Source: Candidatus Marinacidobacterales bacterium
GTDB taxonomy: Bacteria > Acidobacteriota > Vicinamibacteria > Marinacidobacterales > SMYC01
NCBI GenBank assembly: GCA_965224085.1
Contig: CBDCYI010000005.1
Span: forward strand, 640,001-704,000
Reading direction: 5' to 3'
DNA: 64,000 nt
Shown in pieces: positions 40,637-63,887 of the stretch. A program made the translations under genes and the position numbers. Numbering within the stretch: the stretch's first letter is position 1; every line of letters begins with the position of its first letter. The notes under the pieces are model-generated. The model had not been told where the DNA came from. It searched no databases and was given only the letters and a program-made list of their open reading frames with translations.

Positions 40637-41250
40637 GTGTCGGCTGTTCGTGACCGATGGCTCCAAGGCGCTACGGGTCGCCGTCGACGCTGTGTTCGGT
40701 ACCCACAACAAGGTCCAGCGTTGCAGGAAGCACAAGGAGCGCAATGTGCTCGGTTATCTGCCGCAGGAGCTGAAGCCGCAAGTGCAAGCGAGCCTGCGTT
40801 CGGCCTGGCAGCTCCCAGCAAAGAAGGGCAAAGCTCGGTTGGAGCAACAGGCGAAGTGGCTTGAGGACGACTACCCCTCGGCGGCGGAGAGCATCCGGGA
40901 GGGGCTCGACGAGATGTTCACCATCAACGAGCTCGACCTCCCCGCATCTCTGAAACGCTGCCTTGGATCGACGAACATCATCGAGTCGTGCTTCAGCGGT
41001 GCGCGAGGTCGTACCCGTCGCGTCACCCGCTGGCGCAATGGCAAGATGGTTCTGAGATGGGCCGCTTCGGCTCTGCTCGCCACGGAGAAAAATTTCCGTC
41101 GTATCATTGGATACCAATCGCTACCGATCCTCGAAGCGAAGTTAGCGGAGGTCACTGAGAATCAAGCGCTCGACAAGCACGCCAAAGTCGGGTAAACATG
41201 TGTCAGGAGCCGCCACCACCTCGAACCTTCAACTATGGTGGGGGCACCTC
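40637..41250 (+). mobile_element. IS256 family 3' fragment with right end
   Basis: VTDGSKAL, QRCRKHK.RN, STNIIES; end TTCAACTATGGTGGGGGCACCTC. Confidence 0.85.
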
Positions 41251-41680
41251 CCGGTCGAGACACTCTCGACGTATGGAGAGAACGAATCTTTCCGCATATG
41301 CGTTCAGATTCGGACTATTAGCGGGAAGGCGAAGGGGCTTCACGCCTGAATCTCTCAACAGCCCACGTACCGCCTCGGTGAATAGCGGGTCCCGGTCGTG
41401 GATGAGGTATCGCTTGCCAAGGAGGAAACCATCCCACATGTCCGTGAGGTTTCTTGCCACCTGCTTCATCCACTCCCCGTTGGGGTCCGACGTTATCCCA
41501 CCGATGCACACGCAGCGAGTGGCGATATCGATGACAAACAGGACATGGTAGCGGACGAGCCCGAACGGGTTCACAACCTCGACGGTGAACAGGTCTGTCG
41601 CAGCGATGGCGCCCCAATGAGCCTTGATGAAGGTGCTCCACGACATGCTCCTGCCCCGCTCCGGCGCAGGAGCGATACCG
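41251..41680 (-). pseudogene. rve integrase-core transposase, internal fragment
   Basis: [52 protein letters not shown]. Confidence 0.85.
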
Positions 41681-42270
41681 CGTCCTGTGCCAAAACTCGG
41701 GCTTTTTGAAATAGCCTATAAATCAGCAGCTTGGTGTCTGTGTTTGCGACCAGGCCCTTAGCTCCTGGAAACAAGATTTCAACCCTTGACGAGCTTGAGC
41801 GCCCTCTTGGCAAGCACGGTCACGACCCCGGCATAAAGAGAGGTACTGACCTGATCGACGATGGCGTCCAGGGAACCGCCAATCACTTGGATGTGACTCA
41901 GTACGTCCGCACCTGCAGTAGCACCGACTGCAAGAGTCAATACCAAGTAGGCTGTCGCGTCCTCAGCGTCGATCGCCAACCCGCCATACACCAAGCCCAG
42001 AACAACCAGTGCGAGGGCCACGATCCCAGCGGGAACTGCCTCAGCGGCCAAGCCCTGCACAATCGCCAATAGCCAGATGAGGCCAACAATGATTCTGATT
42101 GCCATTTTTATCTCCTAGAATAGTTGCGCGTGATGGCCCGCTCCGTCGGCCAGCCGTAACAGTCACGGACACGGTAACAGGGCCGCCGGAATTATACCAA
42201 TACGGGGCCCCTGTTGTCATCCGAAAGAAAGAAGATCGCGTACCGCTGGATCGACTTTTTGCGGAGCACA
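41681..42270. mobile_element. Candidate non-autonomous element with one passenger gene
   Basis: Inward-facing CGTCCTGTGCCAAAACTCGG and GATCGACTTTTTGCGGAGCACA; both recur elsewhere and both cut a flanking gene. Confidence 0.55.
41779..42105 (-). CDS. Small (108 aa) multi-TM hypothetical protein
   Basis: RBS AGGAG plus ATG; hydrophobic, intact. Confidence 0.7.
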   Translation of the reverse strand: MAIRIIVGLIWLLAIVQGLAAEAVPAGIVALALVVLGLVYGGLAIDAEDATAYLVLTLAVGATAGADVLSHIQVIGGSLDAIVDQVSTSLYAGVVTVLAKRALKLVKG

Positions 42271-42557
42271 GCTATCGAGGGTTCCTCGCATCTTGCATGC
42301 TCGAAATAGGAGCCGGCGTGTACACATCGCCCCGAATGAACCGCGGCGTGCGAGAAAGAGTCTGGCGGGTCTGTGTCGACTGGTCCACGGAACTCGCCGT
42401 GGATGCGAGCGTGCTCATGACATGGCGCGACAGCAGCGCCCCGGGTGGCCAAGCGATTCTCGCGCTCGGAGAGCCCGCGAAGGAACTCTTTGACCATGAG
42501 GGTGTCCTTCTCGTTCGGCAGAAACCACACGATGCACTACCGTTCTTTGAAAACTGA
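42271..42557 (+). pseudogene. cas2: Type I-E Cas2, 5' truncated
   Basis: YRGFLASCMLEIGAGVYTSPRMNRGVRERVW..MTW....PGGQ...LGEP.KEL...EGVLLVR. Confidence 0.85.
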
Positions 42558-42586
42558 AGATTAAACGGGGGATGCGCTACAAAGAG
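42543..42586 (+). promoter_or_regulatory. Probable CRISPR I-E leader remnant, no repeats follow
   Basis: TTCTTTGAAAACTGAA...GCGCTACAAAGAG directly after cas2. Confidence 0.45.
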
Positions 42587-42644
42587 CTAGAACTTGCGTC
42601 ACGGATCCGGTGTGCGCGGCGTATTCAAATCCCAGCGGTCGTGC

Positions 42645-43731
42645 TGCCTTGGTGCACAACTCGCGATCTCGGTCCACAATTGTCCTGTACTCGCGGATTC
42701 GAGGTTCCCCATGAGCATTTTCAAACGCACTCAGCGGAAGTATGTGAAGAAGGCCTATCGCGTGAGGAATTGGCGTGAATATGAGGCGGGTCTACGCAAC
42801 CGTGGGAGCCTGACCGTCTGGATCTCGCTCACCGCCGGCAAGCTTGTGAACTGGGACGCGCCCCGGCCGAGGAGGAGGAAACCGGGCCGTCAACGCAAGT
42901 ACTCGAACCACGCCATCGAGACGGCTGTCACCCTGGGCATGGTGTTTCATCTGTCATCTAGGCAGAGCGAGGGATTGCTGCGGTCGTTGTTCGCTCTGAT
43001 GAAGCTAGACAATGATGTGCCCGATCACACCACGATCTCGAGGCGCAAGGCGAAGCTGGGTAAGGTCCCCTTCTACCAAGACAAGCAGAAGACGCCGTTG
43101 CACATCTTGATCGACAGCAGCGGTCTCGCTGTCCACGCCGGCCAGCTGCGCAGAGCACCAAATAGCAGGGACTATCGCAAGCTCCATCTGTGTGTCGACG
43201 AGCAGAGTGGCGAAGTCGTCGCCGGCGAGCTGACGAGCAAAAGAGCCCGCGATTCATCGCGGGTTGCATCGCTTGTCGGACAGAGCGACAGTCCCATCTC
43301 ATCGGCCAGAGCTGACACCGCATACGACGCCAGCGGCGTCTATGAGGCAATCGAGAATCACAGCGCTCATCGCTCGCCGAGGGTGCTGATACCGCCGCGC
43401 AAGGGCGCCCAGCTCGCATCGGGGCCGGCGAGCAGCCGACAGCGCAATCGCAACATTGCAGCACAAGCTCGGCTCGGCAAACGAAAGTGGCACACAGAAT
43501 CGGGCTACAGCAAACGGAGCAAAGTCGAGACAACGTTCCATCGCTACAAGGCTATCGTGGGCTCAGCGATGCGAGCGAGAGGGTTGGCGGCACAAAGAGT
43601 CGAGGCAAGGATCGGGTGCAAGATTCTCAACACGATGACGGCGCTCGGGATGCCTGATAGCGAGATGATCGGATGATGGGAGTCGGGGCCAAGCGAGCTC
43701 TCGGCCTCTATCGGAGTTGTGCACCAAGGCA
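42645..43731 (+). mobile_element. IS5 family (IS903 group), copy 2, intact; transposase 42711-43676
   Basis: Perfect 18-bp TIRs; NWREYE..L..RGSLTVW, PDHTTISRR, IDSSGL, ADTAYD, RSKVET. Confidence 0.94.
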
Positions 43732-43801
43732 GTTTATTGGCAGACCTATTCTTAGGCCGGCCAAGGAGCCGCCGCTACCCCAAATTCAACATCCGGCGGG
43801 A

Positions 43802-44453
43802 GTGCGCTGGGCTAACTGAAAGGAGCCTATGGGTGGAAGTCCAATCCGACCAAAAGTCGTAGCGGACAGGTCGGGACCGAGTCTTGCGGGCGTCGTGGCA
43901 ACGCGGGGTCCGAAGCGTAGACAGGGGTCGTGCAGGGTGTGTGAATGTAGCCTCGAAATGCTGAATATCGCGGAAGGCCGAGTTGATTCCCGTCAATGAA
44001 GGCAGCATGTGGGCCATCGCTATCGCGAGATGGTTACGCTCCGCCGGGGTCGTGGACCACATCACGTACGAAGAGTTCCTTTCGGGACCCAGGAGGTCCG
44101 GCCGGGTCCATCGGAATGGTCACCGATGGGGGCGTCGCGCAAGGGAAAACCGAAGCGCGGTGCTGAGCTGAGGCCGGAAGTCGGACCGATTCATAGTACT
44201 GAGGAAGCTATCGAAGGCAACGAGATGGTGGAGGGAAGGGATCGGCCTGGAGGGAACCCACGGGAGAGGGCTAAGGTCCGGACACAGCGCCGGGTCGCCT
44301 TACCGCCAAATCTCACGCGGGTGAACGAAGCAGCGAAGCGAGATAGAAAGGCTCGGTTCACTGCGTTGCTGCATCACGTGGATCACGAAGCGCTCTATCG
44401 AGCGTTTCGTCGGTTGAAGCGCAGCGCAAGCGCTGGTGTCGACGGAGAGACTG
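43802..44453 (+). mobile_element. Group II intron 5' fragment with the start of the RT/maturase
   Basis: GTGCG 5' end; GAAGCGT, GAAGGCAG and CATAGTAC..GAAG..GGAGGGAAGG motifs; ORF RFTALLHHV..AFRRLK..SAGVDGET. Confidence 0.88.
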
Positions 44454-44711
44454 TTGGAGAGCAACATCCATTACCCCACAGATAGCTCACTGCTTGCCGA
44501 TGGCATCCGGGTGCTCACCCGTAGTCTGAAGTGTATTGCAAAGGCTTGTGCTCAAGGTGCGCTCAAGGTGGTGGACCACAGCCGATCAACGAAAAACAGG
44601 CAGCTTGAGATCGACCGCGCCAGCAAGTCGTTCACCGAATCGAGCCAAGTCAAGTTCAAGCAAAGTTATCGCAAGCTCATGGGCACGGCGCGCAGCGTGG
44701 TCCGGCAAGCC
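44454..44711 (+). pseudogene. DDE transposase fragment (ISNCY/IS5-like)
   Basis: ESNIHYPTDSSLLADGIRVLTR. Confidence 0.75.
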
Positions 44712-44998
44712 GTGACAGCCGTCTCGATGGCGTGGTTCGAGTACTTGCGTTGACGGCCCGGTTTCCTCTTCCTCGGCCGGGGCGCGTCCCAGTTCACAAG
44801 CTTGCCGTCGGTGAGCGAGACCCAAACGGTCAGGCTCCCGCGGTCGCGTAGACCCGCCTCATATTCACGCCAATTCCTCACGCGATAGGCCTTCTTCACA
44901 TACTTCCGCTGAGTGCGTTTGAAAATGCTCATGGGGAACCTCGAATCCGTGAGTAAAGGACAATTGTGGACCGAGATCGCGAGTTGTGCACCAAGGCA
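44712..44998 (-). mobile_element. IS903-group copy 3, left-end fragment, diverged
   Basis: Same TIR and MSIFKRTQRKY start, with substitutions. Confidence 0.9.
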
Positions 44999-45154
44999 CC
45001 AATCCGGCAGAAACACCACTCCCCAATAGAGCTCTCTTCGGTTTTTCTTCAGAAACATGGCTACTCCTCGCTTTGAGCTCGTTTCGTCGCTTACTCATAC
45101 CGCCACTCGCACCGATGACGCACTCCGGTCCGTGTAGGCAGGCTCCGTCGAATG

Positions 45155-45169
45155 TGGTACACGTATTGC
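45155..45169 (+). promoter_or_regulatory. Sigma54 -24/-12 promoter
   Basis: TGGTAC-ACGTA-TTGC, 52 bp before the amidohydrolase ATG. Confidence 0.65.
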
Positions 45170-45221
45170 TCTGCCGTTGGAGCCGGGGTCGGTCACGGCA
45201 GGCATCGCTGGGAGGAAAGCC

Positions 45222-46738
45222 ATGCGAATGAGGAAACGAGCAAGCGTTCTTTGCCTGTTGCCCCTGTTCCTAATCGCTGCCAGCGGCGAGAGCGGGACGC
45301 AGTCGAGCCGGACGACGGCCATCGTTGGGGCCACGGTGATCGATGGTACGGGAGGTCCACCACTCCTGGACGCGACGATCGTCGTGACCGACAAACGTAT
45401 CGCGGCCGTGGGGCCGCGAAGCTCGGTGGACGTCCCGGAAGGTGCCCTCGTCGTCGACGCGAGCGGTCAATTCATCACTCCCGGATTGATCGACACCAAC
45501 GTGCATCTCTCGGTCACCTTTGCTCGGTCCGGTCCGAGCAAAGAAACGGCCGTCGTAACGCCGAGCTGACCCTCGAAGCGGCCCAGATGCAGTTGAAATA
45601 CGGCGTGACCACCGTGCGTGATAGCTACGGAGCGCTCCTTCCGCTGAAAGAGTTACGCGACGCCATCGCACGTGGGGAGGTGATCGGACCACGCATGCTG
45701 GTAGCAGGCAACATCGTGGGTTGGGGAGGACCCTTTTCGGTGAGCTTCTCGCTCGTTCGAGAGGAAGGCCTGTCCCTTTGGGAGGAGCAAATCAACGATG
45801 CGGTCACCCAGGGGAGTGGCGAAGAGCTCATGGAGATGTATCCGGAGGAGCTTCGCGAAGCCATCAGCGCCTACCTCGACAAGGGGCCTGATTTCATCAA
45901 GTTTGGCGGGACGTCTCATTGGTCGCCGACGTTCATCGGCTTTTCCGAGAAGGCGCAGCGGATCCTCGTCGAAGAAACGCACAAACGGGGACGGATAGCA
46001 GAAACGCACGCCACCAGTCCGGAAGGGCTTCGGATATCCATCGAGGCGGGAGTCGATCTCATCCAGCACCCGGAGGTGCTGGCGGGAAGGGAGATCTCCG
46101 ACGAGCTGGTCCGACAGATTCGCGAGCGCGAGATCGTCTGTTCGATGCTGGTCAACCGCTGGGGCGGGCAAGGCTATCAGGAGCACCTCGAAGCCCGGAA
46201 GGCGGCCGAAGCCCGCCTGGCGTCGGAGGAATCCGTGGCCCGGAAGCCCGGGCTGAAACGAGCGGTGAAGAGGGAGAAGGCCTCCGCGGAGCGGCGGCGA
46301 GAACGGGCGCTCCTGGGTCTCGACACCGAGATGAACCGGGGGAACGCAAAGAAACTCATCGAGGGCGGCTGCATCGTGACGGTGGGGACGGACAACGCTC
46401 CCGTGGCCGCGCCGGAGTTCTCGAGAACGCCGACCGGCTTGCGGTCCGTCTACCGGGAGCCGGGCTACGGGACCATCTCCGCCATCGAGAATCTGGTGGA
46501 GTTCGGCATGAGCGCCGAAGAGGCCATCGTGGCTGGAAGCCGAAACGGCGCCATCGCCTCGAAGGGCCTCGAGGATTTCGGCACCCTCGAGGTCGGCAAA
46601 TTTGCGGACTTGCTCATCCTGGATGCCGACCCCATCGCGGATATCTCGAATCTCAGAAAGTTGCGTTGGGTCATGAAGGAGGGCCAGAGGATCGATCCGA
46701 AGACCCTGCCCACCAACCCGATTCTCTATGAGCGATGA
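45222..46738 (+). pseudogene. Secreted amidohydrolase-family protein, frameshift near 45555
   Basis: Signal peptide, ITPGLIDTNVH, then a second frame YGVTTVRD..VGTD..GTLEVGKFADL. Confidence 0.8.
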
Positions 46739-46761
46739 TCTTTGATTTCGTCGAGGAAACG

Positions 46762-47592
46762 ATGCGAAGAATGAATGCTCGCGCGGTGCTGGCCTCGAGT
46801 GTGCTGGCCCTCCTCGGGATCGGCACCGCAACTCCACAGACCGGACTCGTCCAGAATCCGATGGAGGGAGACCCGAAGGCCCTCGAGCAGGGCATGCACA
46901 TGTACAGGCACCGGTGCGGCGTTTGCCACGGGCTGGACGGGCTCGGCTACCAGGGACCGGATTTGAAGAACGGCCCGTGGCTCCACGGCGACAGCGACGC
47001 CGACCTGTTTCGGGTCATCTCGCGCGGTGTTCCCGGATCGGAGATGGGGCCGGCTCGACTTCAGGAGGACGAGGTCTGGATGGTGATCGCTTATCTGCGC
47101 AGCTTGAGGAGCTCGGGAACGGATCAGGAGGAGCCGGGCAACGCCGCCGCAGGTGAAGAAATCTACTGGGACAAGGGCTCGTGCGAACAGTGTCACCGGA
47201 TCAACGGCCGTGGGGGACGGCTCGGCCCCGATCTGTCCCGCATCGGCGCGGCGCGCTCCAGAACGGCGTTGATGCGGGAGCTCCGAAGCGCGAGCGAGTA
47301 TTTCCCCCCCGGATACGAGCCCGTCACCGTGCTCCTCCGCGACGGGCGGCGTATTCCCGGCGTCAGGAAGAACGAGGACACCTTTTCGATTCAGTTGATG
47401 GATGTGAACGAGGAGCTGCACCTGTTACTCAAGAGTGACTTGTTGGAGGTCATCGACGAAGAGCACTCCCTCATGCCAGACTACGGTGTCGAGCAGCTCA
47501 CCGACGCCGAGCTCGACGATCTCTTGAGCTATCTCCGTACCCTGGGAACCACGGCAGCTTCCGCCAGGCCGGTGCAGCAGAGATCACGATGA
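46762..47592 (+). CDS. Di-heme c-type cytochrome
   Basis: Signal peptide, CGVCH and CEQCH, GPDL motifs, SLMP. Confidence 0.88.
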   Translation: MRRMNARAVLASSVLALLGIGTATPQTGLVQNPMEGDPKALEQGMHMYRHRCGVCHGLDGLGYQGPDLKNGPWLHGDSDADLFRVISRGVPGSEMGPARLQEDEVWMVIAYLRSLRSSGTDQEEPGNAAAGEEIYWDKGSCEQCHRINGRGGRLGPDLSRIGAARSRTALMRELRSASEYFPPGYEPVTVLLRDGRRIPGVRKNEDTFSIQLMDVNEELHLLLKSDLLEVIDEEHSLMPDYGVEQLTDAELDDLLSYLRTLGTTAASARPVQQRSR

Positions 47593-49202
47593 ACAGGCGG
47601 GCGAGCTCGGTCACCGTCGTCGGAGCGGTGTGCATCATCGCGACCTTCGGGGTAATCGCCTCCGCTCAGGAGGTTCGTCGCGAAGATCTTCTCGATGGGC
47701 TCGCGAACCCGGAACGGTGGCTGACCTATTCGGGAAACTACACCGGGCAGCGGAACAGCCCGTTGACCCAGATCACGACGGAGAACGTCCGGAGGCTGGC
47801 GCCCCGATGGACCTTTCAAACCGGGGTTCTGGGGAAATTCGAGGCAACTCCCATCGTCCTCGACGGGATATTGTTCGTCACCGGACAGGACAACCATGCC
47901 TGGGCCCTCGACGCCCGGACGGGCCGCTCCATCTGGCATTACCACAAGCCGCTGCCGGACCTCCTGAATGTCTGCTGCGGCTCCGTCAACCGTGGCTTCG
48001 CCATCTACCGGGATCGACTCTACATGGCTACGCTCGATGCGCGTCTGGTCGCGCTGGACGCGAAGACGGGAAGCCTGATCTGGGACGTGGACATCGCCGA
48101 TCCCGAGCGTGGTTACTCTGCCACCGCCGCCCCCCTCGTGGTGAAGGACAAGTTGGTGGTGGGCATTGCCGGCGCCGAATACGGTACGCGAGGCTTTCTG
48201 GACGCCTACGATACCGGTACCGGAAAGAGGCGCTGGCGCTTCTGGACGGTGCCCGAGCCCGGCAAGCCGGGCGGCGACACCTGGGCGGGGGACGCCTGGG
48301 AGCGCGGGGGAGGTTCGACGTGGCTGACCGGAACCTATGACCCCGAGCTGAACCTCATCTACTGGGGCACGGGGAATCCCGGACCGGACCTTCTCGGCGA
48401 AGTACGCCCGGGGGACAACCTCTACACGGACTCGGTGGTGGCCCTCGATGCCGACTCTGGCGAGCTGCGCTGGTACTACCAGTTCACGCCGCACGACACC
48501 CACGACTGGGACTCGAACCAAGTGCCGGTGCTTGCCGACATCGAAGGGGAGAGCGGCACGCGAAAGCTCTTGATGTTGGCCAACCGCAATGGGTTTTTCT
48601 ATACCCTCGATCGGACGAACGGGGAGCTGTTAGTGGGAAAGCCCTTCGTTCACACCACCTGGGCCACGGAGATCGGCCCCGACGGCAGGCCCATCCTCCT
48701 CCCCAACAACACGCCGAGCGCCGAGGGCACCTTCACCTGTCCCGACGTCGAAGGGGCGACGAACTGGATGTCTCCTTCTTTCAACCCCTCAACGGGATGG
48801 CTCTATGTGACGGCCCGTGAAGCCTGCGCCACCTTTTATGCGTGGCCCCAGGAGTTCATCGAGGGCCAGTACTACTTCGGCGGAACCTACCGACCTTCGG
48901 GCCCCCGTGCATACAGCGCCCTGCGGGCCATCGATCCGCTCACCGCGGAAGTGAAGTGGGAGTTCAAGTATTTTACCGCCTCGATGGGAGGCACCCTTTC
49001 CACGGATGGGGGCCTCGTCTTCGGCGGAGACATGGATGGAAACGTGATGGCGTTCGACGCCCGCACCGGTGAGAACCTGTGGCACTTTCAGACGGGTGCC
49101 TCCATCTACGCGTCACCCATCACTTACATGCTGGACGGCACGCAGTACGTCATGATTCCGTCGGGAACGACCCTCTTTGCCTTCGCCCTTCCGAAGGAGT
49201 GA
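47589..49202 (+). CDS. PQQ-dependent dehydrogenase, methanol/ethanol family
   Basis: CCGSVNRG, YWGTGNPGP, TPHDTHDWD, ANRNG, Trp-docking repeats. Confidence 0.92.
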   Translation: MNRRASSVTVVGAVCIIATFGVIASAQEVRREDLLDGLANPERWLTYSGNYTGQRNSPLTQITTENVRRLAPRWTFQTGVLGKFEATPIVLDGILFVTGQDNHAWALDARTGRSIWHYHKPLPDLLNVCCGSVNRGFAIYRDRLYMATLDARLVALDAKTGSLIWDVDIADPERGYSATAAPLVVKDKLVVGIAGAEYGTRGFLDAYDTGTGKRRWRFWTVPEPGKPGGDTWAGDAWERGGGSTWLTGTYDPELNLIYWGTGNPGPDLLGEVRPGDNLYTDSVVALDADSGELRWYYQFTPHDTHDWDSNQVPVLADIEGESGTRKLLMLANRNGFFYTLDRTNGELLVGKPFVHTTWATEIGPDGRPILLPNNTPSAEGTFTCPDVEGATNWMSPSFNPSTGWLYVTAREACATFYAWPQEFIEGQYYFGGTYRPSGPRAYSALRAIDPLTAEVKWEFKYFTASMGGTLSTDGGLVFGGDMDGNVMAFDARTGENLWHFQTGASIYASPITYMLDGTQYVMIPSGTTLFAFALPKE

Positions 49203-49229
49203 GTGTTATATGCACTTTGAACAAGGACG

Positions 49230-50314
49230 GGCGTTGTTGCACGGCCCGGAGCAAATCGCTGACCTCCCTGTGCCGGTTGCAGAGTCACCCGGCGCAGTAC
49301 GTATCGGGCATCCCGAGCGCAGCCATCTTGTTGAGTATCTCGCACCCAATTCGGTGTTCAACTCGTTGCCTCGCCAACGTTCGAGCCCGCATCTCCGGCC
49401 CGATGATCGCCTTGTAACGATAGACCGCGTTCTCCACCATGCTTCGCTTGGTGTAGCCTGAGAGCTTGTACCATTCACGTCGGCCGTGTCTTTCGATTGC
49501 ACGAATATGGCGATCTCGCTCCTGCATGGCCGTGTTCGAATTCTGACTGAGCGTCGCGTTTCGTTGCGGCGGAATCACCACGCGCGTCCTTCGTCCAGGA
49601 CTGTGCGCTTCGATGGCTTCGTAGACCGCTTCCTTGTCGTATGCACTGTCCGCCGCCACCGACACTAGAGGTGCTTGAATCTGTGTTAGCAAAGCGGGGA
49701 CTCGGGTTGCGTCGCGAGCTCGTGACGCCGTCAGTTCGGACGCAACAATGTTCCCTGTCTTGCGATCAACGGCGATGTGCAACTTGCGCCATGCGCGCTG
49801 CTTTGGCGGTTTGCGAGCGTTTCCAACATGAATCCTCAAGCCCGTGCTATCGATCATCAGGTGGATGGGTTGAGTGCTCGCGGCTTTCGGAATCCGCAGC
49901 TTCTTGCGGAGCAACCTCGAGCGCCGACACAACGCCGAGTAGTCCGGGATCTCGATACACAGCCGGAGAAGCGAGGCGATCGAGTGCAAAAAGCCTTCGG
50001 TTTGTCGGTAGGCGAGCTTGTACACCATCCGGACAACCAGGCCCGTTTCAATCGCCATGTCTGAATAGACCCGTTGACCGCCAGGCTTACCGGTCTTGTC
50101 GGCCTTCCAGTTCGCGATTGCCTCCTCGTCAAACCAGACTGTCAAATCGCCCCGGCGGCGCAGCCCTTCGTTGTATTCCGCCCAGTTGCGAACGTGGTAC
50201 TTCTTCTGCTTCGCGTGCTTGTACTGGCAGCGCTTGGGATACTTCATGCTCGAACATACCTCGGCCACCACCATAGGCGGATTTCGCTCTCAGCCAGAGC
50301 GGTGCAACAACGCC
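49230..50314 (-). mobile_element. Second IS903-group element; transposase 49285-50274
   Basis: TIRs GGCGTTGTTGCAC / GTGCAACAACGCC; NWAEYN..L..RG, IDSTGL, WRKLH; no TSD. Confidence 0.93.
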
Positions 50315-50410
50315 TCGATCAAGTAGACGATAGCGGCCTGTTGCTCACGCTGGATCCAACCGGCGACGGCGACGACGAGGAGTGTCCAGGGTTGGATAGG
50401 CGCGCTCATC
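50315..50410 (-). pseudogene. N-terminal fragment of an rve-type transposase
   Basis: Manual translation MSAPIQPWTLLVVAVAGWIQREQQAAIVYLIE, recalled as the usual N-terminus of this family; cut by IS. Confidence 0.6.
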
Positions 50411-50480
50411 ACGGATTCTACCTTGCGTTGCCAATCAAAGCGGAGACGCGTCTATCAGAAATGCCCCGGTTGACGAGGGC

Positions 50481-50646
50481 TGTGGTCCGCAAAAAGTCGA
50501 TCCAGTCTTCATTGCGGGGTTTAGACCTGCCTTCCACGAGACTTGGTGGGATCCGCCTCAGCTCTGCCTGACGGACCCGGATACGGGGATCCTCTATGGG
50601 TTCCGGGACGACAAAGCCTAGTCTGAGCGAGGTTTTCGAACACGCG
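50481..50646. mobile_element. Candidate MITE / paired end sites
   Basis: 50480-50505 matches the reverse complement of 42246-42271 at 25/26; the other end is CGAGGTTTTCGAACACGCG. Confidence 0.45.
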
Positions 50647-50745
50647 GAGGTTGCCGCCTGATCTGATACCCTGATGACCGAGTGGAGGGTGCCGTTCTTT
50701 TTCCACGGACCTCGGGACACATCCCTACGGTCTTGAGAAAACGAG

Positions 50746-51000
50746 TTACGAATCCTTGGTCTTGAGCTGGGCTTTGTTTTCTTGAATGAAGGCGCGGATG
50801 TCATCTGTCATCTCGAGCAGTTTCTCCCACTGATCCTTGTATAAGGTCACCGGGAAACGGCCCAGTCCGTAAACGGAGACGCCGCCCTTCTGGCTGACTT
50901 TGAGGGAGAGCTCTTTCTCACTGCGCTTCTTGAGCGTTTCATTCTCAGCTTGCAAGCGCTCCAGTTCTTTCTTCATTTCTTCCGGTGTCATGTCGCTCAC
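50746..51000 (-). CDS. Small conserved hypothetical protein
   Basis: RBS GGAGG plus GTG; coiled coil then LKVSQKGGVSVYGLGRFPVTLYKDQW. Confidence 0.75.
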   Translation of the reverse strand: MSDMTPEEMKKELERLQAENETLKKRSEKELSLKVSQKGGVSVYGLGRFPVTLYKDQWEKLLEMTDDIRAFIQENKAQLKTKDS

Positions 51001-51145
51001 GATTTGCCTCCGTGCTTTCGACTGTGTCGCCTCTATCCGATGAAACAGATGAGTCCCCGAGTGAGACACTAAAACGTAGCCCTGCCCCATCCCCGTCCGC
51101 GTACGATGCGGCCGGGCTTCGCTGGATAATAGCAGGTACGAGATT

Positions 51146-51517
51146 TGAACCGCCCCGGGTTTCCCGGAGACTCCAACTCTTGAGAGGATGGAGTCATGAC
51201 AAGACGAAGCAAGGTATTCACCGGAGATGAAAGAGCGCGCAGTGCGGATGGTTTTCGACCAGCAGGCTCAGCACGAATCACAGTGGTCGGCGCTCTCATC
51301 GATTGCGTCGAAGATTGACTGTACGCGGGAAACGCTACGCACGTGGGTGCGGCGAGCAGAGCGTGATGCTGGGAAACGAGCGGAACTGACGACGGACGAG
51401 CGTCAGCGGCTGAAGGAGCTTGAGCGAGAGAACCGTGAGCTAAAGCGGGCGAACGAGATCCTTCGCAAGGCGTCGGCGTTTTTCGCCCAGGCGGAGCTCG
51501 ACCGCCGACCGAAGTGA
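51146..51517 (+). mobile_element. IS3 family left end and orfA; orfB missing
   Basis: TGAACCGCCCCGG end; ELERENRELKRANEILRKASAFFAQAELDRR. Confidence 0.88.
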
Positions 51518-51604
51518 AGGTGTTTGTTCGTCGACCTCGGCTGTGGCGGGCGTGATGCCGAGCAGGGCCGCGAATTCATCCGGCCCCCCCAGGGCCTCCA
51601 AACG

Positions 51605-51696
51605 CGTCCTGTGCCAAAACTCGGATCTTTCGAAATAGACCATAAATCAGCAGCTTAGCAAGTTCGGTGCGCGCGGATGAATAAATAGAAGGCACA
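51605..51696. mobile_element. 92-bp MITE-like element
   Basis: First 52 bp nearly identical to 41681-41732; ends GGATGAATAAATAGAAGGCACA. Confidence 0.5.
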
Positions 51697-52554
51697 GCAG
51701 GGCGGTGCGTTCAGACTCCAGTCGTACTCGTGATCCAGCGACCCGTCGAAGCCTCGTAGCTGCTCCGCCAGCGCGTCGTCCGCGTACTTCAGCAGGTGTG
51801 CGAGCACCCCGGTGTCCGAACCGCCGAAATCCTCATGGTACCAGTAGTAGATGCTGGACACGACGGCGAACGCCTCGTCCAGAAACTCGACGCCGCGCGG
51901 GTGATTCACGTATTCCCGCGCGCCCTGATCGAGCATACGCTCCAGGTTGGCGGCGGTATAGACCTCCGGGGACAGATTCGGACAGCCGATGCCCGCACAA
52001 TTCACGGCGTAGTGGATCCGGTTATCCCGCCAGATGGGCCGCAGGATGTCGTGCTCGATGTTGTTCAGGGTCAGTTCTTTTCCGGCAACGGTCGCGTGGA
52101 CATCGTCCCACGGCCCCAGCAGGGGGATCAGACCCTCGTGGATCTGCTTGATCGAGTCCACGGGATACTCGCCCAGGACCACCTGCACGGTCAGCGCGTT
52201 GTAGAGATTGATCCAGTACGCCATCTGCTCCGCCTTCGCGTAGCGCCTCGGATCGAGCCCCTGGAGGTAGTCGAGATAAACGGCGAGACGCTGCTGGTCG
52301 GCGACGTTCGCCTGCAACGCCCGGTAATCGACCAGATTGACGCCGGACGGGTCATCGGTGATCAGATAGATGTCCAGGAGCGCCTGCCAGTCGCGGTGGT
52401 CGATTCGCTCGTTGCTGGCGGCGTCGTGGTCGGCCCAGGAATGATCGTCGGGCGGCGACGTACAGGACGCCGAGGCCAGCGCCAGGAGACCAATCAAGCT
52501 AGACAGCGCCGAGTCGAAGGCGCATCTTCCTCGCGCGTGCGGCGTGCGTGTCAT
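51655..52554 (-). CDS. DUF547 family putative lipoprotein
   Basis: AYWINLYNALT, TLNNIEH.ILR, RIHYAVNCA..CP.L, YDWSLN; LASASC lipobox. Confidence 0.88.
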   Translation of the reverse strand: MTRTPHARGRCAFDSALSSLIGLLALASASCTSPPDDHSWADHDAASNERIDHRDWQALLDIYLITDDPSGVNLVDYRALQANVADQQRLAVYLDYLQGLDPRRYAKAEQMAYWINLYNALTVQVVLGEYPVDSIKQIHEGLIPLLGPWDDVHATVAGKELTLNNIEHDILRPIWRDNRIHYAVNCAGIGCPNLSPEVYTAANLERMLDQGAREYVNHPRGVEFLDEAFAVVSSIYYWYHEDFGGSDTGVLAHLLKYADDALAEQLRGFDGSLDHEYDWSLNAPPCCAFYLFIRAHRTC

Positions 52555-53020
52555 CGTTGTCCTTCCGTTCCGGCTTGCTAACCTATGCACGATGACTGAC
52601 CTGCCCGGTATCACCTACAGCAGTACTGTCAAGTTTTCCACGGCCTGACGGCCACCCCGAATGAATGAAACGCGGTAGTCTCTGGAGGTGGCACCGGCTC
52701 AACACGACGCCTGAGGGAGCTCGGTTTTGACGTCACTGCCCCCAAACGCTACACCCTGAGTTTCTTATTAGTTGACGAAAAGCAATCATCTGCACCGGCT
52801 TCACCGTCGGATGCAGCACAAGCTCCTCCATCCGGGTCGCGAGCTTGAGCGTCGCTTCGAGGGCTTCCAGCGCAATTTCCAGGCGACCGGCCAGGTGCTA
52901 GGGGAGAGGTTCGAAATTGCCATCGTCGATCCAATCGAGCCAGCCGATCCAGCCGAAGACGAACCGAGCGACGATCCCGCGGTGGGCTAAACCCTTCCTG
53001 AAACCCACACGGTACAAGAG

Positions 53021-53421
53021 GGTACTTTCGACTGACACTCCCGGCCGAAGGCATTTTTCATGATATGGATTGATCGGGAACGAGGCTGAAGCCGAGTCGG
53101 GTAGCTTTGCGTCGGAGATTACTCAGGAGGCGTTGCTGGTATTGCCTTTCATAGGCGTCCTGACCGAGCTCAATGAACTCCTCTCCTGTCGCAAGCATGC
53201 GGAAGTAGATGGTCGCTATTTTACGGGCGGTAGCTGTGATGGCCTTTGGAGCACCTCGTCGCGATCGGATTCGTCGATAGAAAGCGCCGAGCGCGGTTTG
53301 GGTATTGCGGACAGCGCACGCGGCGAGGCGAAAGAGTTTTGCAGCACGACTGGAGCTCATTGGGGTGGCCCGGCGAAAGATTCGACCAGCGGACTCCTTA
53401 TTATTCGGTGCGAGAGCTAGC
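53021..53421 (-). mobile_element. IS110 3'-end fragment, second copy
   Basis: About 400 bp nearly identical to 37639-38039. Confidence 0.92.
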
Positions 53422-53455
53422 GAGGGCACCTCACCCGTCGTCTCCCTACCTAGGG

Positions 53456-54943: not shown

Positions 54944-54958
54944 GTCCCTGACCTCTCT

Positions 54959-56542: not shown

Positions 56543-56624
56543 CTTGCTACTCCTCTTCTTCCGAGGTTACAGAGAAGCCCGGAGAGGGATACCTGGCGGA
56601 GCCCTCCCCCGGCTTCCAGCTTAC

Positions 56625-58361: not shown

Positions 58362-58757
58362 GACTGCCTCCTTTCTTGTCTTGCGGAGCCCGGTCCTCCT
58401 TGCGTCACGCAGACTCTCGATGATCGCAGACTGGGTGTATCGCAATCTCGATGCCAACAAGAACCCGGTTGGCAATCATCCTCTCGAGCAACGAGCTCAA
58501 GCTAGGGGCTAGTCCACTGGATCTTTGATTACTATACAAAGTTAGGCTTTTCGCCAGCCCATAAGATTCATAAGATTCATGCACTTAGAAGGGTTTCGGC
58601 AAGCTCTGCTTTATCTAGTTTTTTCTGATACAGGGGACTAGAGTACAATGGCCACCCCACCTCATCGTCACGCAACTGCGACAGAATCGCGAGGTGGCCA
58701 TACTTCCGTTCAGACCAGACCCGAACTCTTTCTATCTCCTCCAGTCCTCCAGCTAGA

Positions 58758-61604
58758 TTAGAAGGAAAACCGCGCGCCCACCCGCAGGGTACGAGGAAGA
58801 TCAATTTGGGCCGGCCTGAGGAAATTGCCATGGTCGAACCGCAGCGAATCCACCGCGAGGACGGTGCTTCTGTTCAAAGCGTTGAAGATGTCGGCCACCA
58901 GACTCAGTCTCCCCCTGCCCATTTCAATCTGTTTTTCCGCGCGGAACGAGAGCAGGTGCCGGAAGTCTTGGCGGTTCGTTCCTCTCGGCTGACCGGCGAC
59001 GTCGATGAAGCTCTCCGCGACAATCTCTGGGTGATCGCTGCGGCTGAAGCGAACCGTGTACGCACCCAGTATGTCCGACGGGAAACCCGAGTTGGGCTTG
59101 ATCGGAAAGCCGGAAATCCCCTGGTAGAACGCGCTCACCATGATTTCGTAAGGAGCCTCGTAGCTCCCGAAGAGCTTGAGCTGGAAGGGAGAGTCCAAGT
59201 CGAGCGGACCGTCAATATTAAGAAAGGTGTTCGGGTTGTCGTAGACTCGGTGCCCTCCCCAGGTGGCGCCGAAACTGTTGCCGATGTTGCCGTCGGAGCG
59301 GCCGAGGTTGAGCGAGCCAGTAAACTGCCAGCCGTCGCTCATCCGCTTGCGAGCTACGATCTCGATTCCTTTGTAGTCCCGCTTGAGAACCACCGGATCG
59401 GTGGGGTTGGTGAGAAATCGGATCCGCTGCACACCTTGAAGGCTCTCGTCCAATGCAAAGATGGTCAAGGGTTGGCCGTCAATTGGGTTGATTACAGTGA
59501 ACGGGTTATATTTGTCGAAAGGCTTGGATAGATCAATCGTTTCGATAATGTCCCGCTCTCTCTTGAAGATCCCGGCCACGGACACGACGAAGTTATCTCC
59601 CAGCTGCTGGTCCACGCCCAGGTGAAGCGTATCTACGTACGGCTGTATCAAGTCGGGGTCGAAGCGATTCAGATTTGACCGCGTATCGTTGCGCAGGGTG
59701 CCCTGCTCGCCGTCCTGGAACTTGAGGTCACCGTTGAGGTCCATCCAGTCGAACTCCTGGTAGCCGGCCTGGCCGCGGTTGGCAGTGAGAACGTGCTGGT
59801 TGAGAAGGGACATGTAATAGCGGCCATAACTCGCCTTGACAGAAGTCTTTTGATCGCCTCTGACATCCCATACCGCTCCGAGCCGTGGCGCCGTGTTGAA
59901 CCAGCTGATCTGGTCGCGTTCCTCTGGGAAGTTCTCGACGGGGAACCACATGCCCCCTCCACTTTGCTGGTCGGGCTGCCAGCCTTCGGTCCACTCGGAG
60001 CGCACGCCCAGGCTTAGTGTGACGCGGTCTCCTATGGTCCACTCGTCCTGGAGGAACAGGGCGTTAAACGTCACATTGGTTCTGGGCTCCCTCGGTGTAT
60101 TGTAGAGTCGAACCCGGTGCGGCACCCCGCTTCGAGTCCGGAGGTGCGTGTCCCCGAAAATGTCTCGGACCCGCGCAAAGGGAGAGAATTCGTTAATATA
60201 CCCTGCCTTGATGCTGTGTGTGCCAGCCCACTCATCGACGTAGTGCGAGATGTTGCCCTTGATCGTCCTCTTGTCCCGCCGGAAGGTGGGGCCCCGTGTG
60301 CCGGTCCAACCTCCAGAGTCGAGCCCGGTCACGAGGTCACGAGTGCCTACTGCGTCGAGGCCGAATTCCTCTCGGAAATTGACGAGAGCCTGGCTGAACA
60401 GCGCTTCCACGAACGTGGAGTGGCTCAGCGTGTGAATCACCGAGCCTTGAATAATGCTCTGGTCCCTGAAGGCTCGCCGCCAGGTCTCCGGTGCATCGTT
60501 GGTCCTGAAGCTGGCGTTGCCGGGAAATTCCTCGCGGTTTATCTTGGTGTAAGAGCCGAGTGCCCGGGTCTGCTCAGTGAGCTGCGCTGTGAACTTCACG
60601 AAAGCGTGCCGTTCATCGAGTCTGGGGTCGCGAGCTGGGAAGTCCGGCTGGGTCCGTTCTACATCGAACCAGCGGACGTTACCAAAGAACCAAACCCTAT
60701 CTCGCTTCAGTGGCCCGCCCAAAACGAATCCGTACTCCAAGTTCTTTTTTTCGGTCGTTCCTTTTTCGAGCCCCTGGGCACGAAGTTCGTCGGTGAGGTT
60801 GTCCCCTTGCAAGCTATCGTTCACCAAGAAGAAGTTGGCCTCGCCGCTCAGCTCGTTCCCTCCCGACTTGGTGATGAGATTGAAAACCGCGCCACTGGCC
60901 TGGCCAAACTCGGCAGAAATGCCCCCCGTGGTGATCTGAACCTCTTCCACGATGTCATATGGGATAGGCATGGCATTGTATCCGACCGTGGTGTCGTTGG
61001 TGCCGGCCCCATCGAGGTTATAGAGGTTGTCCCGAACCGAGCTACCGTGAACTGTTTGGGCGGGCGAGAAACCATACTGGCTATCGACGATGCCCGGAGC
61101 GCTAACAAGGATCTCCTCAATCCTGCGATTGGTAGGAATATTCTCGATGATTGCGGTTTCCACTGTCCGCATCGTCTCCGCGCCTCTGACGTCAACGAGC
61201 GGCGATTCTCCGATGACGGTAATGGTCTCCTCGACAGGACTCAACTTGAGGTTAAAATCGATTTTTATTGATGAACCCGCCTGCAGCTCGATACCCTCGT
61301 GAGTGATGGTCTGGAAGCCTTGAAGCTCAACCCTCACGGTGTAGAAGCCAGGGGGGAGGTTCGGCACGCGATAGGTTCCGGTCTCGGTAGTGACACGAAC
61401 CTCCGCCTCCTTGATAAACTGTGGACTGTTTATTGTGACCGTCACTCCAGGGACGGCCAGGCCGGACTCGTCGGCGACCTTCCCATAGAGGGTTCCCGTC
61501 AGCTCTTGCGAGAAGACGGTGCCCGCTCCGACTAGTAATACGAGCAGGGTCAACATAGGCGGAGGCGCCAAGTTGCGCACCACTTCGGATAACTTGTGCG
61601 GCAT
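58758..61604 (-). CDS. TonB-dependent receptor (Oar-like, N-terminal CarboxypepD_reg domain)
   Basis: GKVAD..G..VPGVTV, GGISAEFG..SG.V.NLITKSG.N, APRLG, terminal ARFSF. Confidence 0.92.
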   Translation of the reverse strand: MPHKLSEVVRNLAPPPMLTLLVLLVGAGTVFSQELTGTLYGKVADESGLAVPGVTVTINSPQFIKEAEVRVTTETGTYRVPNLPPGFYTVRVELQGFQTITHEGIELQAGSSIKIDFNLKLSPVEETITVIGESPLVDVRGAETMRTVETAIIENIPTNRRIEEILVSAPGIVDSQYGFSPAQTVHGSSVRDNLYNLDGAGTNDTTVGYNAMPIPYDIVEEVQITTGGISAEFGQASGAVFNLITKSGGNELSGEANFFLVNDSLQGDNLTDELRAQGLEKGTTEKKNLEYGFVLGGPLKRDRVWFFGNVRWFDVERTQPDFPARDPRLDERHAFVKFTAQLTEQTRALGSYTKINREEFPGNASFRTNDAPETWRRAFRDQSIIQGSVIHTLSHSTFVEALFSQALVNFREEFGLDAVGTRDLVTGLDSGGWTGTRGPTFRRDKRTIKGNISHYVDEWAGTHSIKAGYINEFSPFARVRDIFGDTHLRTRSGVPHRVRLYNTPREPRTNVTFNALFLQDEWTIGDRVTLSLGVRSEWTEGWQPDQQSGGGMWFPVENFPEERDQISWFNTAPRLGAVWDVRGDQKTSVKASYGRYYMSLLNQHVLTANRGQAGYQEFDWMDLNGDLKFQDGEQGTLRNDTRSNLNRFDPDLIQPYVDTLHLGVDQQLGDNFVVSVAGIFKRERDIIETIDLSKPFDKYNPFTVINPIDGQPLTIFALDESLQGVQRIRFLTNPTDPVVLKRDYKGIEIVARKRMSDGWQFTGSLNLGRSDGNIGNSFGATWGGHRVYDNPNTFLNIDGPLDLDSPFQLKLFGSYEAPYEIMVSAFYQGISGFPIKPNSGFPSDILGAYTVRFSRSDHPEIVAESFIDVAGQPRGTNRQDFRHLLSFRAEKQIEMGRGRLSLVADIFNALNRSTVLAVDSLRFDHGNFLRPAQIDLPRTLRVGARFSF

Positions 61605-61788
61605 TTTCCTGTCTCCTTTCAGGATTTGAATCGGACCCAGTTAACGAACGAAAGGGAAACTTCGTATGGGAGTTCATCCGACATGGACCCGTGGCGAATA
61701 AATGCTTTACCGTCAAGAGGTTCCATTGGGAATAATAAGGTTCTGTTCGGAATGAGATACACTCCTGATAACCCACTTCTTATTCGGC

Positions 61789-61803
61789 GCAAACTGTGTG
61801 CCA
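61789..61803 (-). promoter_or_regulatory. Sigma54 -24/-12 promoter
   Basis: Exact TGGCAC-ACAGT-TTGC upstream of the receptor gene. Confidence 0.75.
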
Positions 61804-61885
61804 TGTATGGGCAGACCGCCCCTGGCTGTAAGTAATTCTAATACAATGGGTTAGAGCCGAAAGGAGAAGACCGAGAGATTAACCT

Positions 61886-61923
61886 ATCCAGATGTTTGGA
61901 TGTTACTAACGATTTAGTTAACA
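61886..61923. promoter_or_regulatory. Candidate enhancer (UAS) palindromes
   Basis: ATCCA-N6-TGGAT and TGTTACTAA-CGAT-TTAGTTAACA, about 85-120 bp upstream of the -24 box. Confidence 0.4.
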
Positions 61924-62022
61924 AACCTTCACCAAAGCCATATCCCCACATCGATTTTAACCCCTTGAAAACAAGAAGATGGAAATCTCTATTCGATGGA
62001 CTTATACCTATTCAATCTTTTG

Positions 62023-62275
62023 GAGTCAAGCCCATTCTTAGTTGAAATGTTCCACGGCTCCCGGTTCGTTTAAGCAACGTTCTTCCTCGACGTATTCTTT
62101 TTCGCGGTCTCGATCTTCAGTTCACGCTTGAGTGCTTCACGCAGCTTTGGAAGGTGTCGGTAGCCCATCACCTTCCGGAGGCGCGGCTCGATGTCGGTGA
62201 GCGCGGTCGCGAGCCAGCGTTGGCGTTGGTTCGAAGTCTTCCAGTGATCGACCTTCGCGCAACGTTCCTTTACAC
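62023..62275 (-). mobile_element. IS256 family 3' remnant with right end
   Basis: QRWLATALTDIEPRLRKVMGYRHL; end ATTTCAACTAAGAATGGGCTTGACTC. Confidence 0.75.
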
Positions 62276-62339
62276 TTCGAACGGCCACATCTGCTTTAAA
62301 CGTACGGGTTTACATGCGTTTAGCCGGCGGAAGCTCCGC

Positions 62340-62562
62340 CTAGGGGGTCTCCAGTTCCGTGAGCGAGGATGTCCTCGTCGGGCACCTCAAGAACGGGGAA
62401 GCCGGGCCCTTCGAAGAGGCGGCCCCGAACTTGGGCCTCCTGGATCGCCAGCACGCCTCGGCAGAAGGGGTCGTGGTTCCAGTACCCGCGCTTGAGCGTG
62501 CCGTAGACGAAGAGTCTTAACACGCCGGAAGTGTTCTCTTTCAGGGGTTCTCTGGGTTTCAC
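62340..62562 (-). pseudogene. Gamma-glutamylcyclotransferase (AIG2-like) 5' fragment
   Basis: LFVYGTLKRGYWNH..GRLF...GFPVL. Confidence 0.8.
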
Positions 62563-63316
62563 TCAGGAGTTGTCCTCCAGTCCGTGAAAGGTGACCTGAC
62601 CCCACGGTTAGCACCACGTTGTATCTCAGTCATTCGGTGCTGACAATGGCTGGTTGAAGCCGGCGGAGCGGAGCCGGTTTCAACCGAATCGTTTCCGGCG
62701 CTGGCGGTCGGTAACCTAACGAGCTGTGGGGTCTGAAGCGATTGAACTCTTGCCGCCACCTTTCGATCAATACCTTGTCCTCCTTCAAGTGCTCAGGGAA
62801 ACAACGTCCAGAAACGGGATGTCACGCTCCCGGGCGAAGATTTGGACCCAGGTCCTGGGGAAAGATGGATATCAATAAGGCCAGGGCCGCACCTGGACCA
62901 GAACGGGCTAGGCCAGCTACGCCGCGGTAGCCCCGATCTCGATTCTGGGCCTCCCGGATGGCTTCTTTTCCGACGCTGCACGGCCCTGTCAGCGGCCCGC
63001 TCCCCCCTTTGGCGCGAACATGGCACTCGAAAATCGAGATTAGAGACGAAAACCGGTGCTTCCGCAATCAAGTGTTGGTGGCCGCCGCGTAACCCGTTCT
63101 CGTGCTAGAGGTTGAGCCTGATTTCGAGAGACGCAGTTCTTTCGGCGATGCCGGCTGCGCTGACCACGTGGTGCCTGACATTCAGGGACATCTTCGTGTG
63201 CACGCCGACATCCTTATTTATGGCGTTCGCCGACACGGGCAGGCCAACTGACACTAGCGTACCAATCACTCTGAAGTTAACTTCTCGCTCGCGACGCGTG
63301 GGCTTATACTCGCCAC

Positions 63317-63664
63317 ATGGATATGTGGGATCAACAAGATGGTGAGAGTGCGAAGGCGTGGGCGGCGTTCATCGTCTATCGTAGTATGGGCCCGAACCGT
63401 ACGTTGCGGGCGGCGGCTGCGGCTGCTGCGGAGCTTTCACCTAGCCTGAACACTTGGAAGGGCTGGGCGAATCGTGGGGCTTGGCGTGCCCGGGCAGCGG
63501 CATGGGATGCGGCGGCGGACCGCCAGGGGATGGAGGACCACACGGTGGACGATCGACCGCAGCGGAAGCAGGACTGGGGCCAGGTGCTGGACCGAGCCCG
63601 CGCGGACTCGCGAACGCGCCCCAGTGTCAGCCGCTACCGAGTACGACGCGGCCTTCCGGAATGA
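63317..63664 (+). CDS. Phage-type hypothetical (terminase small subunit-like N-terminus)
   Basis: WDQQDGESAKAWAAF.VYR.MGP.R..W..W....W..RA.AWD pattern. Confidence 0.5.
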   Translation: MDMWDQQDGESAKAWAAFIVYRSMGPNRTLRAAAAAAAELSPSLNTWKGWANRGAWRARAAAWDAAADRQGMEDHTVDDRPQRKQDWGQVLDRARADSRTRPSVSRYRVRRGLPE

Positions 63665-63746
63665 CGCGGGCGGCTACTTTCTGCCTGCCGACGCCAGCTC
63701 TCCTGCATTTGGTCGTAAACGTTCCCGCGCGGTTTCAAAGATAATC

Positions 63747-63887
63747 CGTTGTGTCCGAAACTTCCGCGCCAGATTATCCAAGTCGATGGCCTCGATCTTC
63801 GTCACGTCCAGCTTGCCCTCAACGATTGGGGCACGCTTCGCGATCTTTATGGTCTATTTCAACAGGGCCGCGTTTTGGCACAGGACG
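63747..63887. mobile_element. Candidate MITE / paired end sites
   Basis: 63846-63887 is an inverted, mostly identical copy of 51605-51646; weaker left site CGTTGTGTCCGAAACTTCCG. Confidence 0.5.

Follow-up and report, generated by a model that had tools for sequence, protein, structure and literature searches.

We examined 64,000 nucleotides of contig C5 (positions 640001-704000; hereafter the window, whose own numbering is used wherever no contig is named) from the 6.87-Mb assembly (G000) of a Candidatus Marinacidobacterales bacterium, focusing on a set of short sites that resemble transposon ends. An earlier note on this DNA had described eight such sites, each a 20-mer, as one dispersed family lying at gene breakpoints, and all eight were found at the coordinates and on the strands reported. 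They do not form one family. Six are the outer tips of three sibling insertion sequences (ISs), here called IS-A (41681(+), 51605(+) and 63887(-)), IS-B (42270(-) and 50481(+)) and IS-C (51696(-)), and two, 50646 and 63747, are not termini. A repeat search of 38-64 kb returned a repeat of about 54 nt at 41679 and 51603 and inverted at 63846, and a 32-nt inverted pair at 42246 and 50474. The sites had also been grouped into four inward-facing pairs. The strand alternation is there when the sites are ordered by coordinate, and only the first pair (590 bp) and the third (92 bp) are units; the second (50481-50646) and fourth (63747-63887) are chance neighbours. That each site finds its closest match in another pair is correct, and follows from their being repeated copies of shared IS ends.

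Ends were counted with nhmmer profile searches over the whole assembly, which gave 83 copies of the A tip (CGTCCTGTGCCAAAACTCGG), 33 of the B tip (TGTGCTCCGCAAAAAGTCGA) and 46 of the C tip (TGTGCCTTCTATTTATTCAT, the sequence at 51696), all far above chance, together with 48 copies of a related fourth type, the D tip (CGTC[CG]TGTCCAAAAAC), none of them in the window. The ends are clustered, 162 of the 210 A, B, C and D ends lying in 7 of the 79 bins of 100 kb, and the 1.7-Mb contig C11 carries a single one. Aligned A copies share a sharp outer boundary and run into several interiors. One intact IS-A copy in this genome (C5:1887074-1888501) measures 1,428 bp and has 102-nt inverted ends, both of type A and beginning CGTCCTGTGCC, and an open reading frame (ORF) of 381 amino acids (aa). 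At least 48 full-length matches (1,428 bp, 93-98% identity) occur in 9 of the 40 relatives searched and in two taxonomic families; the partner ends of IS-A are therefore fixed, and the element is active now or was so recently. It is an ordinary abundant IS, and for IS-A the claim that these sites are not fixed IS ends is not supported. The 93-98% identity extends across genera and the two families of the order (genomes G002-G033), with flanking DNA that cannot be aligned, and suggests from comparison of the sequences that IS-A has recently spread horizontally. The earlier note had further pointed to a motif like that of integration host factor (IHF), AATCAGCAGCTT, in the copies at 41681 and 51605. 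The motif is present and is no more than a part (positions 43-54) of the inverted repeat conserved in IS-A. Positions 43-55 fit what we take to be the IHF consensus, WATCAANNNNTTR, perfectly in the left end of the intact IS-A (L001, 318-330) and with one mismatch in the window copies (41724-41736 and 51648-51660), which makes this a candidate IHF site.

The IS-B reference (C5:2289044-2290436) is 1,393 bp long, with a 16-nt perfect terminal inverted repeat (TIR), a 364-aa ORF and ends TGTGCTCCGCAAAAA. IS-C measures about 1,256 bp, has the ends TGTGCCTTCTATTTATTC and TGTCCCTTCCATAAACTC, and was found in at least 13 full-length copies in 5 relatives. The D tip was considered as the right end of IS-C and rejected when the IS-C ends were read; it belongs to a fourth sibling, IS-D. 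The four transposases share 28-54% identity with one another and carry a helix-turn-helix (HTH) region and an rve_3 domain (Pfam rve_3 with HTH_32/HTH_21); those of IS-A, IS-B and IS-C are single-ORF enzymes that fall between the IS481 and IS3 families. The best-scoring NCBIfam family for all four is IS481 (NF033577; IS-A 99, IS-B 93.6, IS-C 88.1 and the IS-D class 91.4 bits against a cut-off of 224), followed by IS3 (NF033516; 57-86 bits against a cut-off of 160, not reached). The two overlapping ORFs joined by a -1 frameshift that are typical of IS3 were not seen in the intact IS-A, which has a single ORF. The transposase family is very large, with 7,990 of 8,000 scored candidates at E<=1e-20, all under generic names, and the nearest plasmid-borne relatives are 37-42% identical proteins annotated as 'integrase core domain-containing'.

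The first pair of sites delimits a 590-bp non-autonomous element (41681-42270, plus strand), made of an A-type tip (41681-41756), a 458-nt interior and, at its right, a complete 56-nt IS-B miniature inverted-repeat transposable element (MITE; 42215-42270), with its outer tip serving as the right-hand end of the unit. The inner tip of this MITE had been overlooked in the earlier note. The 56-nt element consists of the fused left and right inverted repeats (IRL and IRR) of IS-B and occurs in 8 full copies in different contexts. The interior of the 590-bp unit holds a 108-aa ORF (41779-42105, minus strand) and is unique within this genome; in relatives, the unit recurs over 41676-42271 at 97.7% identity in G002, and copies sharing one or the other exact boundary are present in G002 and G003, all with different flanks. 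To its left lies an internal fragment of IS-A (41252-41680, minus strand; element positions 597-1026; 96.5% identical to the IS-A interior and 98% by tblastn over transposase residues 175-320). This is what had been taken for a remnant of the rve transposase using the sites; it is indeed an internal piece of IS-A, whose own end adjoins it. IS-A position 597 has been cut here by another A tip, and the boundary at 41681 is exact to the base, as uninterrupted IS-A copies read GATACCG^TGCTCG at this point. About 95 nt inside three of the 56-nt B miniatures (C4:35395-36033, C5:1876209-1876807 and C5:705667-705963) there are tandem repeats of about 15 nt (GAGCC[GT]GAGGCTGCT-like), a region that looks like a further repeated unit ending in the miniature.

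The third pair delimits a 92-nt MITE (51605-51696, plus strand) in which A-tip positions 1-57 are fused to positions 40-1 of the IS-C left end, and which overlaps the 3' end of a DUF547 gene (51655-52614, minus strand). Its 23 full copies are distributed over 5 genomes and 99-100% identical, and 16 distinct flank pairs were recorded. Both the 92-nt and the 56-nt units are short, non-coding, multi-copy and bounded by the tips of resident ISs, as is characteristic of MITEs. The tips of the two mixed-end units (92 nt and 590 bp) belong to different sibling ISs and have only a TGTGC(C) core in common. The 590-bp A/B and 92-nt A/C units exist and have moved as units.

In the second pair, the site at 50481 is the tip of an IS-B-type IRL fragment (50481-50531, plus strand; 84-91% identical to 13 other IS-B left ends), and 50646 lies 26 nt inside a 104-nt truncated IS256-family right end (50621-50724, plus strand; at least 12 genome copies at 93-95%), the true tip of which is at 50724. 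The full IS256-family element is 1,367 bp long, has a Mutator-type transposase and scores 311.5 bits with NCBIfam IS256 (cut-off 150). No relative has a match bounded by 50481 and 50646. In the fourth pair, the A-type tip (63846-63887) belongs to a 637-nt repeat unit (63253-63889, minus strand) found whole in relatives (97.6-99.2% in G010 and G003; from 63269 onwards in G012), with different flanks in each genome. This unit has only one A-type tip, has a different left end and carries a 115-aa ORF (63317-63664, plus strand); the site at 63747 is internal to it. We also considered 63747 as the D-type tip of a 141-bp mini-element and rejected this, as the D profile gave no match in the window at E<=10 and the recurring unit is 637 nt long. 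Treated as a 14-mer with 2 mismatches to the A/D tip consensus, it gave 6 window matches against 1.43 expected; three of these are A tips, leaving the site at chance level. The 108-aa and 115-aa cargo ORFs matched no Pfam family and showed no similarity to each other, and in the Atlas they fall only in unnamed clusters of look-alikes.

These findings bear on the proposal that a single rve transposase, drawing on a pool of interchangeable ends, joins unrelated DNA modules in a cassette-shuffling system. The existence of the two mixed-end units speaks for such a system, and the 637-nt unit with its one recognisable A-type tip, the small ORFs of unknown function in two units and the missing target-site duplications (TSDs) can be read in the same way. 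However, at least three transposase lineages contribute the tips, and each of these lineages has its own matched end pair; only six of the eight sites are termini and only two of the four pairs form units, most of the 'modules' lying between tips are dead ISs of other kinds, and the two cargo ORFs are unrelated and without family. An integron-like or other site-specific cassette system would combine a recombinase with attachment sites. Here the sites are IS tips, and a scan of 43 ORFs, covering 37.6-64 kb and the 10 kb that follow, turned up no integrase or recombinase family. We therefore regard cassette shuffling as very unlikely, and see no sign of a system joining modules for the benefit of the cell. 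What stands of the proposal is that the sites, though not all eight of them, are transposon ends of rve-type transposases, and that ends of sibling ISs partner in two recurring mixed-end units. The note had named as adverse to its own reading either ordinary catalogued ISs with fixed partners and TSDs, or background scores for its three weaker sites; catalogue-type ISs with fixed partners were found, TSDs were absent, and two of the three weaker sites are at background. As first put, the cassette finding has little import, the stretch being an IS graveyard.

The lack of TSDs noted around the eight sites is real, holds throughout the element family and is the single unusual trait found. None of 26 intact IS-A copies (25 of them from 8 relatives) has a direct repeat of at least 4 nt at its flanks and one has a repeat of 2-3 nt, the mean longest repeat being 3.54 for partner and 3.54 for non-partner flanks. 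Likewise, no TSD was found in the 11 IS-C copies that could be parsed (13 fetched; mean longest repeat 3.45 for partner against 3.66 for non-partner flanks). For the 92-nt MITE, 17 of 22 copies were parsed, and none of the 16 distinct flank pairs has a TSD of at least 4 nt, just as TSDs are missing from the parent ISs; 3 of the 16 share 3 nt, compared with 13% in non-partner controls. TSD absence thus spans 53 copies of three element types. As a control we used IS256 in the same genome, of which 4 of 5 full-length copies have 8-9-bp TSDs, one of them (8 bp) nested in an IS-A. IS256 took the place of the IS5-family element of the type at 49230-50314, whose flanks share at most 2-3 nt, in 6 of 18 full-length copies, and whose TSD is very short or often lost.

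Several other configurations were tried and rejected. Reading the dinucleotide CG as a palindromic TSD of 2 bp, so that IS-A would begin with TCC, fails since the IS-A target that was interrupted has a CG of its own ahead of the CG of the element. An element flanked by two copies of a larger duplication does not fit either: 4 of 6 loci have no similarity between their 1.5-kb flanks, and in the other 2 the similarity is short (34-120 nt), and no repeat directly flanks the junctions. What look like 'duplications' of 23-140 nt at four ends are paralogous repeats that lie nearby and contain mismatches. A search for circle junctions or reassorted ends in the contigs of 22 public runs, which cannot show rare junctions, gave a single back-joint, with 18 other letters between the ends.

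The missing TSDs could also be a product of pure decay, in which conventional, TSD-making ISs lost their duplications and acquired unrelated flanks and mixed ends through homologous recombination, adjacent deletions and segmental duplication in islands poor in genes, and in which neither special targeting nor cross-mobilisation plays a part. Among the documented common causes of missing TSDs are adjacent deletions and recombination between copies, according to a study of a Pseudomonas IS481-family element (Ngan et al. 2024, PMC11708052). The copies here differ by 2-7% and sit in islands, and the apparent long duplications beside four ends are the paralogous repeats just mentioned. Besides, a series of IS ends at C5:2287636-2294793, at a contig end, is repeated with identical spacing at C9:3732-11430, at a contig start; either the segment has been duplicated or the assembly overlaps where the contigs end. 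On the other hand, the 92-nt MITE copies, at 99-100% identity, are too short for frequent recombination and still lack TSDs in all 16 distinct cases, IS256 has kept its TSDs in the same genome and even inside an island, and the 590-bp and 92-nt units keep the same boundaries while their flanks differ on either side, a pattern not produced by segmental duplication. Decay accounts for much of the picture, but on its own it is unlikely.

The elements also show a preference for where they land. Six of the 46 C tips sit at position 20 of an A repeat (4 loci after discounting the duplicated C5/C9 segment), and the left tip of IS-B follows position 57/58 of an A repeat in 3 of the 83 A repeats. The target was read from 59 ends whose outer flank has an uninterrupted paralogue elsewhere, comprising 29 distinct A or D cases. 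At these 29 tips the uninterrupted target is aYCC|HSYY (14 of the 29 have T at +3) and resembles the usual flank followed by the tip of the element itself. The same (g)aCCc preference is found at both ends of the 26 intact IS-A copies, where position -2 is C in 26/26 and +2 is G in 22/26. Blunt insertion into CCC^GGG was considered and is not supported, as the uninterrupted targets go on with H-S-Y-Y and not with GGG. A repeat ending in ...GTTGTACCAATGCACC adjoins an A tip at three loci and reads on as CACTCGAGGG where it is uninterrupted (C5:1886924-1887073, C9:25917-26065, C9:528181-528301 and others), and in G003 and G010 similar ends containing ACCAAT lie beside A tips that belong to the 92-nt MITE. 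Repeat ends of this type may be a favoured landing site.

The window sites are set in an IS island that extends at least 8 kb past the window and that holds, from 37.6 to 51.7 kb, IS110, IS6, IS256, IS-A, IS5 (two copies and a fragment), IS-D, IS-B, IS256 and IS3 pieces. The first of these is an IS110-family element (37639-39270, minus strand; ORF 37676-39085; Pfam DEDD_Tnp_IS110 and Transposase_20; NCBIfam IS110, 259 bits; about 10 genome copies), followed by partly tandem-duplicated IS6-family copies (39271-40637, plus strand; Pfam DDE_Tnp_IS240; NCBIfam IS6, 210 bits; direct repeats D1 and D2; at most 66 genome copies) and a C-terminal remnant of an IS256-family transposase with an end (40626-41251, plus strand; Pfam Transposase_mut, profile positions 227-376). 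Beyond the 590-bp unit is the 3' fragment of a type I-E-style cas2 gene (42264-42557, plus strand; Pfam Cas_Cas2CT1978, profile positions 10-86), its 5' end cut by the B tip. It is the sole Cas2 match in the genome, where no match to cas1 was found anywhere, and IS activity seems to have wiped out the CRISPR-Cas locus. Two IS5-family elements follow (42643-43732, plus strand, NCBIfam IS5, 236 bits, 56 genome copies; and 49230-50314, minus strand, ends GGCGTTGTTGCAC..., NCBIfam IS5, 260 bits, 18 full-length genome copies). Between these and an IS5 fragment (44712-45001) lie genes for an amidohydrolase, a di-haem-type cytochrome c and a pyrroloquinoline quinone (PQQ)-dependent dehydrogenase (45152-49202), a cluster that may be composite-transposon-like cargo. 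An IS-D-type subterminal fragment (50313-50479, minus strand; 75-82% identical to regions beside D tips) precedes the IS-B fragment at 50481, and an IS3-family orfA remnant (51146-51535, plus strand; Pfam HTH_Tnp_1) precedes the 92-nt MITE. Further along are short multi-copy repeats (52624-52774 and 62791-63255; 24 and 29 genome copies) and a 33-residue C-terminal remnant of an IS-B-like transposase (62696-62794, minus strand).

Taking these observations together, we consider it probable that the sites are the ends of several ordinary ISs and of their short derivatives, stacked in an IS accretion island, that the siblings tend to land at each other's ends, and that an occasional fusion of ends gives rise to mobile non-autonomous units. 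The siblings land preferentially beside or inside each other, and later arrivals and deletions truncate earlier elements; therefore the tips abut unrelated DNA and cut genes. The cut gene ends reported earlier are there (the IS-A transposase gene, cas2 and the 3' end of the DUF547 gene), and most of these 'gene breakpoints' are truncation scars. We hypothesize that the mixed-end units arose when a deletion fused the ends of two nested siblings, and that they would be mobilised in trans by a sibling transposase, presumably because it tolerates a partner end with the TGTGC core. The absence of TSDs may reflect how the clade integrates, and the tip-like target preference (aYCC|HSYY) would concentrate it into islands. 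These data lend partial support to the swapping of partner ends between sibling ISs.

Several results weigh against this interpretation. The two empty-site tests of intact IS-A copies both gave a right flank that is not the continuation of the left, and in a third search nothing matching the flanks of a G002 copy was found in 4 congeners; none of the intact elements and MITEs examined had contiguous flanks or a TSD, so that not a single simple insertion could be reconstructed. The preference for tip-like targets is modest, with a 41-48% match per position, and is measurable only at ends lying in repeated DNA, which biases it towards IS-rich targets. IS-B is represented by one intact copy in this genome and a duplicate of it, and no full-length copy of high identity was found in the 5 relatives searched. 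Cross-mobilisation of mixed ends, finally, is something we infer from the distribution of copies only.

A further idea is put forward tentatively, as possible rather than probable: that a widespread but uncatalogued IS481/IS3-like clade (IS-A, IS-C and their MITEs) integrates without TSDs, each end being joined beside an aYCC motif that is followed by a sequence like the tip of the element, that it also accepts the end of a sibling, and that its members, by homing to the ends of one another, would build islands and make mixed-end units capable of carrying cargo. This would be a distinct mode of integration for an rve-type DDE transposase, and we found no description of a TSD-less IS481-like clade in the literature. 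An abundant clade of this kind without TSDs is present in at least two acidobacterial families at 93-98% DNA identity, with transposase relatives in the thousands. The mixed-end MITEs indicate that sibling transposases may share ends, which would be a simple route to new non-autonomous elements and to the capture of cargo. For annotation, these tips account for many contig breaks and pseudogenes in these genomes.

In comparison with known systems, the elements resemble the IS481 family in having one unfused ORF that encodes an N-terminal HTH and a DDE core of the rve type, no programmed frameshift, a length of 1.25-1.43 kb and, in IS-B and IS-C, tips that start with TGT. They differ from it in their profile scores (88-99 bits against the cut-off of 224), in the 102-nt TIR of IS-A, in the lack of a detectable TSD and in the tips of IS-A and IS-D, which begin CGTCC/CGTCG with TGT only at positions 6-8; the IS-A tip boundary is fixed by the interrupted known target and by the 26 copies. 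MITEs and other non-autonomous IS derivatives are short and non-coding, bounded by IS tips, high in copy number and mobilised in trans. The 92-nt and 590-bp units resemble these, except that their tips come from different sibling ISs and that they have no TSD. Transposases of the IS3 and IS30 type use surrogate ends or targets like their own inverted repeats, and insert beside sequences resembling their own ends, as is also seen here.

Members of the IS481 family are reported to make TSDs of 2-15 bp, mostly 6 bp (PMC10045372). The IS1202 group, an IS481-related clade of rve transposases, is described as abutting XerCD (xrs) sites (bioRxiv 10.1101/2022.12.17.520857) and as making TSDs of discrete lengths (PMC10045372). 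The elements studied here resemble that group in having an IS481-related transposase clade that abuts sequence-specific targets, and differ in that neither discrete-length TSDs nor xrs targeting was seen. The closest parallel concerns Pseudomonas fluorescens SBW25, where an IS481-family element was observed to transpose without a TSD into a repeated REP (repetitive extragenic palindromic) target, and where a 4-bp 'TSD' proved to travel with the element itself (Ngan et al. 2024, PMC11708052). That event was single and tied to a 60-kb duplication, and other copies there have a putative 4-bp repeat (PMC11708052). Both cases share movement without TSDs and a specific repeated target, whereas the absence of TSDs is general in our 53 copies and no flanking duplication was found within 1.5 kb in 4 of 6 loci. 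If the absence of TSDs is intrinsic to the clade, it would extend the single laboratory observation of TSD-less IS481 movement (PMC11708052) to a natural, testable family.

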